The notes under the pieces are model-generated. The model was not told where the DNA came from and did no database searches. It saw only the letters and a program-made list of their open reading frames with translations. DNA of 64,000 nt from Escherichia coli. Its GTDB lineage: Bacteria; Pseudomonadota; Gammaproteobacteria; Enterobacterales; Enterobacteriaceae. Positions 12,453-45,366 of the stretch are shown piece after piece (position 1 is the first letter of the stretch; each line of letters opens with the position of its first letter). The stretch lies in assembly GCF_011045215.1 (NCBI RefSeq), contig NZ_CP049201.1; one strand, written 5' to 3'. The translations under genes were made by a program, and so were the position numbers.

Positions 12453-12870
12453 TGGTTTTGTAGGCCGGATAAGGCGTTCACGCCGCATCCGGCGACAGGA
12501 GCCAAATGCCGGATGCAACGCTGGCGCGTTTTATCCGGCCTACAATGAGCTCAACATACTGATTTGTATGGTTTTGTAGGCCGGATAAGGCGTTCACGCC
12601 GCATCCGGCGACAGGAGCCAAATGCCGGATGCAACGCTGGCGCGTTTTATCCGGCCTACAATGAGCTCAACATACTGATTTGTATGGTTTTGTAGGCCGG
12701 ATAAGGCGTTCAAGCCGCATCCGGCGACAGGAGCCAAATGCCGGATGCAACGCTGGCGCGTTTTATCCGGCCTACAATGAGCTCAACATACTGATTTGTA
12801 TGGTTTTGTAGGCCGGATAAGGCGTTCAAGCCGCATCCGGCGACAGGAACCAAATGCCGGATGCGTCTCT
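12453..12870. repeat. Tandem BIME/REP array, about 3.6 copies of a 116-bp unit
   Basis: Unit beginning tggttttgtaggccggataaggcgttca(c/a)gccgcatccggcgacagga... recurs at 12453, 12569, 12685 and 12801 with near-perfect identity; each unit holds two inverted REP palindromes. Confidence 0.85.
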
Positions 12871-18989: not shown

Positions 18990-19940
18990 ATGCGTGTGTT
19001 ACTGGCACCGATGGAGGGTGTGCTTGATTCTCTGGTGCGTGAATTGCTGACCGAAGTTAACGACTACGATCTGTGCATCACCGAGTTCGTCCGCGTGGTG
19101 GATCAACTGCTGCCGGTAAAAGTCTTTCATCGCATTTGCCCTGAGTTACAAAACGCCAGCCGGACACCATCCGGTACGCTGGTGCGCGTTCAGTTGTTAG
19201 GTCAGTTCCCACAATGGCTGGCAGAGAACGCCGCCCGTGCGGTGGAGTTAGGTTCCTGGGGCGTGGGTCTCAATTGCGGCTGCCCGTCGAAAACGGTCAA
19301 CGGTAGCGGTGGTGGGGCGACGTTACTCAAAGATCCTGAACTCATCTACCAGGGGGCAAAAGCGATGCGTGAAGCTGTACCGGCGCATTTGCCCGTCAGC
19401 GTGAAAGTGCGTCTGGGCTGGGACAGCGGTGAGAAGAAATTTGAAATCGCCGATGCGGTTCAACAGGCTGGCGCTACGGAGCTGGTGGTGCATGGGCGGA
19501 CAAAAGAGCAGGGTTACCGCGCGGAGCATATTGACTGGCAGGCGATTGGCGAGATTCGCCAGCAGCTGAATATTCCGGTGATTGCCAACGGTGAAATCTG
19601 GGACTGGCAGAGTGCGCAACAATGCATGGCGATCAGCGGCTGCGACGCAGTGATGATTGGTCGCGGGGCGCTCAATATTCCCAACCTGAGCCGGGTAGTA
19701 AAATATAACGAACCGCGAATGCCGTGGCCGGAGGTGGTTGCTTTGCTGCAAAAATATACCCGTCTGGAAAAGCAGGGCGATACCGGGTTATATCACGTAG
19801 CGCGGATTAAACAGTGGTTGAGTTATTTGCGTAAAGAATACGATGAAGCAACGGAATTATTTCAGCATGTTCGGGTGTTGAATAATTCCCCTGATATTGC
19901 AAGGGCTATTCAGGCAATTGATATCGATAAGCTGCGATAA
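18990..19940 (+). CDS. dusC: tRNA-dihydrouridine(16) synthase
   Basis: Dus-family TIM-barrel flavoenzyme; internal start [11 protein letters not shown]... fits better than the track start at 18924. Confidence 0.85.
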
Positions 19941-20029
19941 TAGTGGAATCGCAGTTTATCAGAGACAATGAATCGCTTATTCAGCTTCATCATCTTGTTG
20001 CGCTCCTTTCATGAGCTAAGCCACATATT

Positions 20030-20240
20030 GCCACTGGCGCAAGGAGCGCGCAGGGGGAGGACAATCGCCTCCTCCCCCTGCACCCCCGGGCTCTGGCGAA
20101 CAAAATCGCCGCTGCGCGGTACCTTCAGCTTATCCCCTTCGGCTACCGGGTCGGGCGCGAGGAAACGTCCTTGTAAGACGCGCCCTCAGCCCACATCCAT
20201 GTGGGCTGCCCCGGCCTTCGGGGAACGCTTCAGCAATTTT
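20030..20240. repeat. GC-rich palindrome-dense intergenic element of unknown class
   Basis: Several perfect hairpins in about 210 bp: cagggggagga-caatcgcc-tcctccccctg, ggcgcg...cgcgcc, gcccaca-tcca-tgtgggc, cccg-gcctt-cggg. Confidence 0.4.
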
Positions 20241-20327
20241 GACGCCACCAACACCGGAGCTGTTTGCAAATCAAGTACACAAAATATCTAGTTCCTGACC
20301 TGACAACTTATATGTCATATCTGATTT

Positions 20328-20411
20328 TTAAAATATCATCTTAAATACGCCAGTCACCACCAGTAGCCCAATCAGGAAAATAATCAATACAGCCCAGAGT
20401 ATAATTTTCAT
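20328..20411 (-). CDS. yohP: 27-aa small hydrophobic membrane protein
   Basis: Reverse-strand ORF MKIILWAVLIIFLIGLLVVTGVFKMIF with SD aaggaa 7 nt upstream; matches my recollection of E. coli YohP. Below the ORF-track size cutoff. Confidence 0.55.
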   Translation of the reverse strand: MKIILWAVLIIFLIGLLVVTGVFKMIF

Positions 20412-20634
20412 TGGCGTTCCTTTATTTGTGAGTGCTGAATAAGTATAGGAAAAAACGAAGCCCTTTGCCGTTATCCATAAACGATTAAGATAAATCGGAA
20501 GATATCATTCGCTTAGTGTATATTTTTCTGGATATGTCGTTTTATTGCTACTGATGTATTGCCACGCGAAACTAAAAAATATATCGCAACACACGGTAAT
20601 CTCCGCGCACCTTTTCTTACCTGATTATTCCCCC

Positions 20635-22071
20635 ATGAATCGTGATTCCTTTTATCCAGCCATCGCCTGTTTTCCGCTGTTACTGATGCTGACCGGGTGT
20701 GCGCCTATGCATGAAACCCGCCAGGCGTTAAGCCAGCAAACGCCCGCTGCACAAGTTGATACCGCATTACCCACGGCGCTGAAAAATGGTTGGCCAGACA
20801 GCCAATGGTGGCTGGAGTATCACGATAATCAGCTCACTTCCTTAATTAACAATGCACTACAGAACGCACCGGATATGAAGGTGGCTGAACAGCGCATTCA
20901 GCTAGCTGAAGCCCAGGCGAAGGCAGTTGCTACTCAGGATGGTCCGCAGATCGACTTTTCTGCGGATATGGAGCGGCAAAAAATGTCGGCAGAAGGGCTA
21001 ATGGGGCCGTTTGCTCTGAACGATCCGGCCGCAGGTACGACCGGTCCGTGGTACACCAACGGAACTTTTGGCTTAACGGCGGGCTGGCATCTCGATATCT
21101 GGGGAAAGAATCGGGCGGAGGTTACTGCCCGCCTGGGTACGGTTAAAGCACGGGCGGCGGAACGCGAGCAAACCCGCCAATTGCTGGCTGGCAGCGTAGC
21201 CCGCCTGTACTGGGAGTGGCAAACCCAGGCGGCGTTAAACACGGTCTTGCGGCAAATCGAAAAAGAGCAGAACACCATTATCGCGACCGATCGCCAGCTA
21301 TATCAGAACGGGATTACTTCTTCAGTTGAAGGTGTGGAAACCGATATTAATGCCAGCAAAACCCGGCAGCAGCTCAACGATGTCGCGGGGAAAATGAAAA
21401 TTATTGAGGCACGGTTAAGCGCACTTACAAATCACCAGACAAAGTCATTGAAGCTTAAACCGGTCGCGTTGCCGAAAGTGGCAAGCCAGCTTCCTGATGA
21501 ACTGGGGTACTCCTTACTGGCCCGGCGGGCAGATTTGCAGGCGGCGCACTGGTACGTTGAGTCATCGCTAAGCACCATTGATGCGGCAAAAGCGGCATTT
21601 TATCCTGACATCAACCTGATGGCCTTTCTGCAACAGGATGCGTTGCACTTAAGCGATCTGTTCCGTCATTCCGCGCAGCAAATGGGTGTTACGGCAGGCC
21701 TGACGCTACCCATTTTCGATAGTGGTCGTCTTAACGCCAATCTCGATATCGCAAAAGCCGAAAGCAACTTGTCTATCGCCAGCTACAACAAAGCGGTGGT
21801 TGAAGCGGTAAATGACGTGGCGCGGGCGGCCAGCCAGGTTCAGACACTGGCGGAGAAAAACCAGCATCAGGCGCAAATTGAGCACGATGCCTTGCGTGTG
21901 GTAGGTCTTGCGCAGGCGCGCTTTAACGCGGGCATCATTGCTGGTTCCCGCGTCAGCGAAGCCAGAATCCCCGCGCTGCGTGAGCGGGCCAATGGCCTGT
22001 TATTGCAAGGGCAGTGGCTGGATGCCTCCATTCAACTCACTGGTGCGTTGGGCGGGGGTTACAAACGCTGA
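20635..22071 (+). CDS. mdtQ: Outer-membrane efflux factor lipoprotein (NodT/OprM family)
   Basis: Internal start MNRDSF... gives 478 aa with lipobox LLLMLTGC; OMF-like coiled-coil/barrel composition. Confidence 0.75.
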   Translation: MNRDSFYPAIACFPLLLMLTGCAPMHETRQALSQQTPAAQVDTALPTALKNGWPDSQWWLEYHDNQLTSLINNALQNAPDMKVAEQRIQLAEAQAKAVATQDGPQIDFSADMERQKMSAEGLMGPFALNDPAAGTTGPWYTNGTFGLTAGWHLDIWGKNRAEVTARLGTVKARAAEREQTRQLLAGSVARLYWEWQTQAALNTVLRQIEKEQNTIIATDRQLYQNGITSSVEGVETDINASKTRQQLNDVAGKMKIIEARLSALTNHQTKSLKLKPVALPKVASQLPDELGYSLLARRADLQAAHWYVESSLSTIDAAKAAFYPDINLMAFLQQDALHLSDLFRHSAQQMGVTAGLTLPIFDSGRLNANLDIAKAESNLSIASYNKAVVEAVNDVARAASQVQTLAEKNQHQAQIEHDALRVVGLAQARFNAGIIAGSRVSEARIPALRERANGLLLQGQWLDASIQLTGALGGGYKR

Positions 22072-24350: not shown

Positions 24351-24523
24351 AAAGTTCTTTGACGTTGCATTGCTGGCGTAAATGTCAGCAATGCAGCATT
24401 TCCTCACGATTCTCCTTTGACGATCGCACTTTTTGCTCGTTATGATGGCGTCGCTAGCCTCAGTAAATCCTTACTCCGGCGGTGCGCAACCCGTGCGCGT
24501 GAACCACTATCTGAATGCTCATC

Positions 24524-32959: not shown

Positions 32960-33691
32960 ATGAAGATGTTGCGCGATCCGCTGTTCTGGCTCATTGCTTT
33001 GTTTGTGGCACTGATTTTCTGGCTGCCTTACAGCCAGCCGCTGTTTGCTGCCTTGTTCCCACAACTGCCACGACCCGTTTATCAGCAAGAAAGTTTTGCA
33101 GCTCTGGCACTGGCTCATTTCTGGCTGGTGGGAATTTCGAGTTTGTTTGCGGTGATCATTGGTACTGGTGCCGGAATTGCTGTCACTCGCCCGTGGGGCG
33201 CGGAATTTCGCCCACTGGTGGAAACTATTGCCGCCGTTGGACAGACTTTTCCGCCCGTCGCGGTGCTGGCGATCGCCGTTCCGGTGATCGGGTTTGGTCT
33301 GCAACCAGCGATTATCGCCTTGATCCTTTACGGTGTGCTGCCCGTCCTGCAGGCGACACTTGCCGGGCTGGGAGCGATTGATGCCAGCGTGACAGAAGTT
33401 GCGAAAGGTATGGGAATGAGTCGTGGTCAGCGACTGCGTAAGGTCGAGCTACCGCTGGCGGCTCCGGTGATTCTGGCGGGCGTGCGAACTTCGGTGATTA
33501 TCAACATTGGTACGGCGACGATCGCCTCAACGGTAGGGGCCAGCACGCTGGGTACGCCCATCATCATCGGGCTTAGCGGATTTAATACCGCGTATGTGAT
33601 CCAGGGGGCGTTACTGGTGGCACTGGCGGCGATCATCGCAGACCGCCTGTTTGAAAGGCTGGTGCAGGCGCTTAGCCAGCACGCAAAATAA
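32960..33691 (+). CDS. yehW: Osmoprotectant ABC transporter permease
   Basis: 243 aa membrane protein, completes the transporter. Confidence 0.8.
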
Positions 33692-33838
33692 AGGTATAAC
33701 CTGCGAGCATGACGCCACCAATTCCGCCTAACGCCATAAACAGGAACAGGGCGATGACCCCAATTTTAGCTATGCGCATAATGCACTCCTTATGTTAACG
33801 AAAGGATTGTACAGTAAAGCGCATTTGTTAACGAATCA

Positions 33839-44952: not shown

Positions 44953-44990
44953 AATAAAAAAACCTGCTGGTGAGGCAGGTTCTTTTATTT
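44953..44990. terminator. Bidirectional rho-independent terminator in the yehK-yehL intergenic region
   Basis: 7-bp stem aacctgc/gcaggtt flanked by an A run upstream and a T run downstream, so it gives a U tract on either strand. Confidence 0.5.
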
Positions 44991-45276
44991 ACTATTTTCA
45001 GGCCTAACACCACAGCCTGTGCAACATCGTGTTCCAACGAACGAATTATAACCACGGCTGGACCCCGTTGCAATTAAGATAATGAGATTTATAATCCAGA
45101 CCGTTGGGACGTTGCGCCGGATCGAACCTATTTCAAGTCCTGGCTACCGGACGGGTGGTGCTGCAGGTGGTGCCCTGATCCGGAGTGCAACATCGTGGTC
45201 CAACATACGTAAACCAGTATCGACAGGCAGTGTAAGGGTAAGGTGCTGGTGTTGCGCTCCTTAATAAGGAGAGCGG

Positions 45277-45366
45277 ATGGACTCGCTGACACAAAAGTTA
45301 ACCGTGCTCATTGCTGTACTGGAGCTATTAGTAGCTCTGTTACGTTTGATTGATTTGTTGAAGTAA
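45277..45366 (+). CDS. Unannotated 29-codon hydrophobic/amphipathic peptide ORF (candidate small toxin-like membrane peptide)
   Basis: ATG preceded by SD aaggag (5 nt spacing); MDSLTQKLTVLIAVLELLVALLRLIDLLK; putative promoter ttgcaa-N16-tataat at 45068..45095; hairpin aaggggga-N7-tccccctt at 45389..45411. Confidence 0.35.
   Translation: MDSLTQKLTVLIAVLELLVALLRLIDLLK

Follow-up and report, generated by a model that had tools for sequence, protein, structure and literature searches.

A 27-codon reading frame of Escherichia coli is the small membrane protein gene yohP and lies beside a structured element related to TwoAYGGAY RNA

The short hydrophobic reading frame described here, on the minus strand of the window (the whole 64 kb stretch of E. 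coli DNA that was analyzed), is judged from its sequence to be the gene yohP: all of the sequence-level defining features are present and nothing counts against this identity. Confidence is very high that 20328..20411 (minus strand) is yohP and that it acts as in the published account, the promoter being a presumptive one. The gene is already known, since it has been named and experimentally studied and is found in almost every E. coli genome. In the published biology, this 27-residue peptide lowers the membrane potential, so that cells in stationary phase turn down their metabolism and come to tolerate stress, and YohP also serves as a published model for signal recognition particle (SRP)–dependent post-translational insertion and for mRNA targeting. 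The spacer on the 3' side of yohP holds a structured element that occurs in two orientations among E. coli strains. This element could bear on how the yohP transcript is interpreted in strains other than K-12 and on what TwoAYGGAY RNAs do, and it and its two orientations may be worth more than the reading frame itself. The features discussed are collected in Table 1.

Table 1. Positions of yohP, its signals and the other features of the window
Feature	Position	Strand	Basis or remark
yohP CDS	20328..20411	-	27 sense codons + TAA; ORF listing, identity to annotated YohP, family models
Shine-Dalgarno-like AAGGA	20418..20422	-	6 nt upstream of ATG; identical in all 7 Escherichia loci
CTATACT (-10 TATACT preceded by C)	20442..20448	-	~30 nt upstream of ATG; same in 7 loci; putative yohP promoter
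dusC	18990..19940	+	Convergent downstream neighbor; annotation transferred from NZ_CP059283.1 by offset + ORF list
mdtQ	20635..22071	+	Divergent upstream neighbor; intact 478-codon ORF
TwoAYGGAY-related structured repeat, ~270 nt	19991..20257	-	Weak RF01731 match, 21-copy alignment, single-sequence fold
Hairpin CAGCCCAC-ATGGAT-GTGGGCTG, AYGGAY loop	20187..20208	-	Invariant in all aligned element copies
YohO	33672..33779	-	35-aa ORF; NCBIfam NF010225
OrzO-P antitoxin RNA	44956..45031	-	Rfam RF02083, 99.9 bits
29-aa hydrophobic ORF MDSLTQKLTVLIAVLELLVALLRLIDLLK	45277..45366	+	Preceded by a Shine-Dalgarno motif; beside OrzO-P
naRNA4/CssrE	12463..12772	+	Three tandem Rfam RF02564 matches, 79-86 bits, 116 nt spacing
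Peptidase-S11 RNA motif	24439..24519	+	Rfam RF03039; candidate cis-regulatory leader

Identity of the reading frame

The frame begins with an ATG at 20411..20409 and ends with a TAA at 20330..20328, and the translation of 20328..20411 on the minus strand is MKIILWAVLIIFLIGLLVVTGVFKMIF. The original prediction had placed a 27-codon hydrophobic ORF at 20328-20411 on the reverse strand, and the sequence bears out its coordinates, codon count and strand. It also bears out the description of the product as a peptide with a single transmembrane helix: K2 and K24 stand at either side of one hydrophobic helix, which contains G15 and G21 and has a 19-residue Kyte-Doolittle (KD) maximum of 2.96. The peptide is identical at 27 of 27 residues both to the annotated YohP protein WP_000691708.1 and to the product of K-12 gene b4679. 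Curated family models agree with this assignment. The NCBIfam equivalog model for the small membrane protein YohP, NF011345, matches residues 1-27 over its positions 1-27 with 67.3 bits (E = 7.7e-19) against a curated cut-off of 58 bits, which makes the window peptide a member of the family (its type sequence, in fact), and the Pfam family PF25659 (YohP) scores 50.6 bits (E = 1.8e-13), above its gathering score of 27 bits. A sequence search of the PDB with the YohP peptide found no solved structure.

The annotation of other genomes points the same way. In a collection of 15 billion proteins, the exact peptide MKIILWAVLIIFLIGLLVVTGVFKMIF is found on at least 1000 contigs under the name "protein YohP [Escherichia coli]," and its UniRef-derived name reads "n=32 Tax=Enterobacteriaceae." The gene order yohK, yohJ, dusC, yohP, mdtQ, yohF, yohD is seen in the 99.7% identical record NZ_CP059283.1 and again in K-12 MG1655, in which yohP is b4679; in the window, the frame likewise sits between dusC and mdtQ, with yohJK and yohF beyond, a layout that PMC12719787 describes as well. 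Of its neighbors, mdtQ (an outer-membrane efflux component) is intact in the window, whereas it is a pseudogene in K-12 MG1655, and intact mdtQ alleles are reported from other strains (PMC12719787 supplement).

The gene is also nearly universal in the species. A megablast search with 20100..20700 matched 5,425 of 5,426 complete E. coli genomes, and the features under the matches listed are annotated "yohP: small membrane protein YohP" and mdtQ. A narrower query, the 123 nt that run from the -10 element through the stop codon, has a match in 5421 of the 5426 genomes and is at least 99% identical in 5354 of them; the matches occur at a median of one place per genome (two at most), are always chromosomal and are annotated as yohP. 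Taken together, the 27/27 identity, the family models, the synteny and the annotation mean that the frame is yohP itself. The original prediction had called it "YohP-like"; the resemblance was correctly seen, but the peptide is the same as YohP rather than merely similar to it. The accompanying suggestion of an under-annotated novelty does not hold: both NCBIfam (with an equivalog) and Pfam have a family devoted to YohP, RefSeq annotates the gene in E. coli genomes, that of K-12 among them, and several papers deal with it specifically. The remark that the frame falls below the length cutoff of the ORF track is plausible, the default minimum of the ORF tool being 60 aa.

Chance and conservation

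Could a random short frame be hydrophobic simply because the local composition is T-rich? Short frames are plentiful: 498 ATG-initiated ORFs of 15-60 aa occur in the 64 kb window, and 73 ORFs with a length of 20 aa or more overlap the 4 kb that surround yohP. A frame of 27 codons is therefore no evidence by itself, which is why it was compared with the other ORFs of the window and with shuffled sequence. An SD-like motif precedes only 25 of the 498 ORFs, and yohP has one; its 19-residue KD value of 2.96 is the highest of all 498. The highest hydrophobicity maximum in 20 block-shuffled windows was 2.57, so that every shuffle fell below the value of yohP.

For conservation, the locus in the window was aligned with six others (three from records named E. 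coli, the K-12 locus, and those of E. whittamii and of Escherichia sp. E1V33, which belongs to a cryptic clade), and the peptide is identical in all seven. The only changes in the coding sequence are in the third position of Ala7, from GCT to GCA or GCC, which is synonymous, and in the stop codon, from TAA to TAG. By comparison, the 230 nt upstream of yohP carry up to about 14 substitutions across the same loci, so the coding sequence is the more conserved at the nucleotide level. The original prediction would have been contradicted by a lack of conservation of the frame in related genomes; instead, the frame is conserved in 7 of 7 Escherichia loci, and the Salmonella orthologue has been tagged. 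Conservation across genera is drawn from the fetched Escherichia loci, the curated family models, the UniRef-derived name and the Salmonella literature. A chance origin of the frame is refuted by this conservation and by the published detection of tagged protein in both E. coli and Salmonella, with the matches to curated family models counting against it as well; its probability is negligible.

Expression of yohP

The good Shine-Dalgarno sequence mentioned in the original prediction is present as AAGGA (20422..20418), 6 nt from the ATG, an ideal spacing. Farther upstream lies the motif CTATACT. A C directly before the -10 hexamer is a hallmark of sigma-S (RpoS) promoters. CTATACT is thus probably the sigma-S-type -10 element of yohP, as suggested by the sigma-S consensus together with the RpoS dependence of the Salmonella orthologue. 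A scan with the sigma-70 consensus found no site on the yohP strand, so the promoter call depends on how the CTATACT motif is read. No intrinsic terminator was found on either strand by a scan from dusC to mdtQ.

Experiments by others fit a gene that is switched on late in growth. Chromosomal SPA-tagged YohP becomes more abundant between late exponential and stationary phase, and also in minimal medium and when oxygen is limited (PMC12719787; PMC12542507). In Salmonella, the small RNA STnc1330 contains the yohP orthologue, and 3xFlag-YohP is high in stationary phase and almost undetectable in a delta-rpoS strain (PMC5437024); the level of STnc1330 RNA falls about 61-fold when RpoS is missing (PMC5001712). 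Earlier reports of YohP induction by SDS/EDTA and by H2O2 were not reproduced (PMC12719787).

The history of STnc1330 raises the question of whether the yohP transcript is mainly a regulatory small RNA, with the reading frame secondary to it (a dual-function RNA). The Salmonella transcript was at first listed as an RpoS-dependent sRNA that does not code for protein, the nucleotides of the coding sequence are more conserved than the flanks within Escherichia, and the mRNA itself holds information for its localization to the membrane. The coding sequence is rich in U (40.5%) and poor in C (10.7%), the window as a whole having 50.7% GC, and the RNA comprising the 5'UTR and the coding sequence (20328..20436, minus strand) has a minimum free energy of -13.3 kcal/mol compared to a shuffle mean of -19.2 (z = +2.1). 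Of 200 shuffles, 199 gave a more stable fold, so that this RNA does not resemble a structured sRNA. Moreover, the protein is abundant and its expression suffices for the phenotypes, and the YohP and STnc1330 literature cited here reports no base-pairing target. A primarily regulatory role for the RNA is accordingly very improbable, and yohP is treated below as a protein-coding gene.

How YohP would work

The published account, applied to this locus, would begin with nutrient exhaustion or entry into stationary phase, when the sigma-S-type promoter would give rise to a short mRNA. The AAGGA and the ATG at 20411 would allow this mRNA to be translated (protein production is known from published tagging), and the product would be a peptide of 27 residues, consisting of little more than a single transmembrane helix. 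YohP is too short for co-translational targeting, so recognition by SRP and FtsY would be post-translational; these would bind the finished protein and pass it to SecYEG or YidC. It has been reported that SRP binds YohP post-translationally and that SRP and FtsY are required for insertion by either SecYEG or YidC (PMC7549839). Alternatively, YohP could be synthesized from membrane-bound mRNA, a route that would need the U-rich coding sequence and would bypass SRP when ppGpp inhibits it. The yohP mRNA reaches the membrane without translation by means of information in the coding sequence, namely its uracil content and predicted stem-loops, and YohP made from membrane-bound mRNA inserts without SRP (bioRxiv 10.1101/2022.11.21.517368). 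The U-rich, C-poor coding sequence and the weak folding measured here agree with the mRNA-targeting account.

Once in the inner membrane, YohP dimers would partly dissipate the membrane potential, and this depolarization would lead to the phage-shock response, an increase in (p)ppGpp, a condensed nucleoid and reduced metabolic activity. SDS-resistant YohP dimers depend on the glycine motif and on K24, and nucleoid condensation upon YohP production is reported as well (PMC12542507). Upon YohP production, membrane potential and fluidity decrease, cardiolipin increases, PspA and PspC are induced and (p)ppGpp rises, and there are fewer metabolic enzymes, a state termed "metabolic silencing" (PMC12719787; PMC12542507). 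Most of these physiological effects come from premature expression from a plasmid in exponential phase, a limitation named by the authors themselves (PMC12719787). Cells that lack yohP withstand ciprofloxacin and oxidative stress less well (PMC12719787; PMC12542507); the phenotypes of the deletion are only mild, and the proteome is hardly affected (PMC12719787).

YohP might instead serve one particular larger membrane protein, as its accessory subunit or its regulator in the manner of AcrZ, MgtS and MgrB, rather than perturb the membrane in general. This is the usual mode of the small membrane proteins that have been characterized (PMC12719787), and the complete invariance of the sequence across Escherichia would suit a specific interaction surface. 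However, the depolarization, the induction of the Psp system and the changes in lipid composition and fluidity indicate an effect on the bilayer, and the YohP literature cited here reports no partner. The mild deletion phenotype fits an action through a partner and an action on the bilayer alike and does not discriminate between them. Action through a dedicated partner is unlikely on this evidence, and an effect on the bilayer is preferred.

The depolarizing activity also brings to mind the toxins of type I toxin-antitoxin systems, and yohP could in principle be the toxin of such a module, held in check by an antisense RNA. The size of YohP, its single helix, the flanking lysines and the depolarization recall toxins of the TisB type, a parallel drawn by the authors of PMC12719787, and a sigma-70-like site at 20312..20339 (plus strand) would start an antisense transcript that enters yohP at its 3' end. 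Yet promoter-like sites on that scale are expected by chance (1 found against 1.1 expected), and Rfam detects no antitoxin RNA at the locus, even though it does detect OrzO-P elsewhere in the window. An antisense RNA antitoxin beside the ORF is thus found neither by Rfam nor by the promoter scan, and an antisense antitoxin for yohP was rejected, the sole promoter-like site on the opposite strand being what chance would give. Native YohP also reaches high levels without cell killing (PMC12719787). It is highly doubtful, then, that yohP is a toxin of this kind, and a non-lethal small membrane protein of stationary phase is the reading kept here.

A structured element 3' of yohP

The element begins about 70 nt past the yohP stop codon, has the same direction as yohP and takes up most of the spacer between yohP and dusC. 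That this spacer holds a repeat follows from two observations: only 2,002 genomes cover at least 80% of the longer megablast query, and the 3' flank of yohP has a median of 3 matched places per E. coli genome. A BLAST search within the window found no second copy. The core of the element is GC-rich, and its single-sequence fold is far more stable than that of shuffles (z = -4.2).

At gathering thresholds, Rfam has no match at the yohP locus. The TwoAYGGAY model, RF01731, nevertheless scores 25.4 bits on the window copy (20235..20109; E = 0.17), below its gathering score of 43 bits, so the copy does not qualify for the family on that measure. An alignable enterobacterial copy (L020) scores 51.5 bits over the full model and passes the threshold. 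Altogether, 21 enterobacterial copies align over about 270 nt, with a consensus of 66 pairs in which 98.4% of cells are paired. Fourteen of these pairs are maintained through two-sided changes, a number reached by 0 of 500 shuffles, and in a control in which the 3' partners were slid by 1-3 columns, only 0-3 such pairs were seen. Helices 1-3, with 17 pairs, make up the closing P1 stem, and 6 of their pairs show two-sided changes, that is, covariation. About 56 G-U cells on the minus strand favor that strand as the RNA strand, which is also the Rfam orientation and the strand of yohP in the window.

The first hairpin of the element has an ATGGAT loop, which fits the AYGGAY pattern. The second loop is ACAAGGAC in the window, ACAGGGAT in most Escherichia copies and ACATGGATGT in L009 and L020, so the window copy has one AYGGAY loop and not two. 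In light of the loss of AYGGAY from the second loop and an extra 3' domain, the window copy is a diverged relative of TwoAYGGAY and, by the Rfam threshold, not a member.

The hairpin sequence is found well beyond E. coli. In a scan of representative genomes, AGCCCACAYGGAYGTGGGCT occurs in Escherichia species, Kluyvera, Pseudocitrobacter and another Enterobacteriaceae genome, as well as in three metagenome-assembled genomes (MAGs) of Proteobacteria (Thiotrichaceae, Gammaproteobacteria and "Proteobacteria bacterium") and in Lachnospiraceae MAGs; the exact hairpin is absent from all of the Salmonella representative genomes scanned. Three of the Lachnospiraceae loci (L021, L022 and L024) hold true TwoAYGGAY RNAs according to an Rfam scan (72-79 bits). 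Their first hairpin, CAGCCCACATGGATGTGGGCTG, has 26 of 27 nt in common with the E. coli element, and the remaining sequence is unrelated. A hairpin shared in this way with gut Clostridia suggests either a strongly constrained binding site or horizontal spread. Related copies of the element are found at loci L002-L011, L015-L018, L020 and L025-L031, and further copies lie in the aqpZ-lysO spacer and in the asmA-yegH spacer, the latter being of a divergent subtype and truncated in K-12. The curated K-12 annotation has no feature at any of the three K-12 element sites.

Two orientations of the element

In K-12, the element is inverted relative to both flanking genes (window 19941..20327 compared to L002 3067..3438). 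Of 5425 complete E. coli genomes, 2002 have the arrangement seen in the window, counted where at least 80% of 20100..20700 is covered, and 3317 have the K-12 arrangement with the inverted element, counted where at least 80% of a 601-nt K-12 query is covered; together they account for 98% of E. coli. The arrangement of the window is also that of E. whittamii and Escherichia sp. E1V33. Between the window and K-12, the core of the element is 89% identical, yohP 100% and the end of dusC 94%. A simple recent inversion was considered and is not favored, as the cores are about 11% apart compared to less than 1% for the flanking genes and the junctions between core and genes are unalignable. The difference could equally have come about by independent insertion, by replacement or by an ancient inversion.

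In strains arranged like the window, yohP and the element are on the same strand, about 70 nt apart and with no intrinsic terminator between them, so the yohP transcript may carry the element. It is conceivable, though the chances are put at the lower end, that the sigma-S-driven yohP transcript of such strains has an RNA of the TwoAYGGAY class as its 3' UTR or releases it by processing, and that in strains of the K-12 type the element would instead follow dusC. If this were true, K-12, which has been used for all YohP work, would have a yohP transcript different from that of more than one in three natural E. coli strains, and the element would be an orientation-dimorphic, possibly mobile structured RNA that gut Clostridia have too.

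Other short genes and RNAs in the window

A cut-off of 60 aa for ORFs hides real genes, which here include yohP, yohO and a ZorO-like toxin. For this reason, short hydrophobic frames preceded by a Shine-Dalgarno sequence need to be checked against small-protein family models before they are called new. The yohO frame, also below that cut-off, scores 80.1 bits with its NCBIfam model (cut-off 57). The 29-aa ORF MDSLTQKLTVLIAVLELLVALLRLIDLLK has no NCBIfam model match and is presumably a ZorO-like toxin; with the neighboring OrzO-P RNA, the stretch 44956..45366 looks like a type I toxin-antitoxin locus of the zorO/orzO kind. Elsewhere in the window, the naRNA4/CssrE matches (12463..12772) are a REP-derived array of nucleoid-associated RNA genes, and the candidate Peptidase-S11 leader scores 72.8 bits against a gathering score of 34.8.

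Comparison with known systems

The closest counterpart of the gene is yohP of K-12 (b4679), which has the same 27 residues, coding nucleotides, Shine-Dalgarno sequence, -10 motif and dusC/mdtQ neighborhood. The surroundings differ, however, since mdtQ is a pseudogene in K-12 and intact in the window and the 3' element has the opposite orientation in K-12 and is about 11% diverged. STnc1330 of Salmonella enterica is reported in the literature to be a yohP orthologue with a ribosome-binding site and a -10 region, RpoS-dependent and expressed in stationary phase, and its tagged protein is made (PMC5437024; PMC5001712).

Like YohP, type I toxins such as TisB, and presumably the ZorO-like peptide of this window, are small, have a single helix with positive charges on either side and reduce the membrane potential. 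YohP differs from them in that no antitoxin RNA is detected, it is non-lethal at native levels and its control is transcriptional and linked to growth phase. The size class, the single helix and the stress-linked expression are common to YohP and to YohO, YncL, AcrZ and MgtS, and their sequences are unrelated; of these, AcrZ and MgtS work via defined partners, whereas no partner is reported for YohP.

As for the element, TwoAYGGAY RNA (RF01731) has the same long closing stem around two hairpins, the first of them with an ATGGAT loop. Unlike RF01731, the enterobacterial copies continue on the 3' side into an additional conserved domain of some 100 nt, in which two more helices covary. The range of taxa in which the element is found, gamma-proteobacteria and gut Clostridia, agrees with the original description of TwoAYGGAY RNA.
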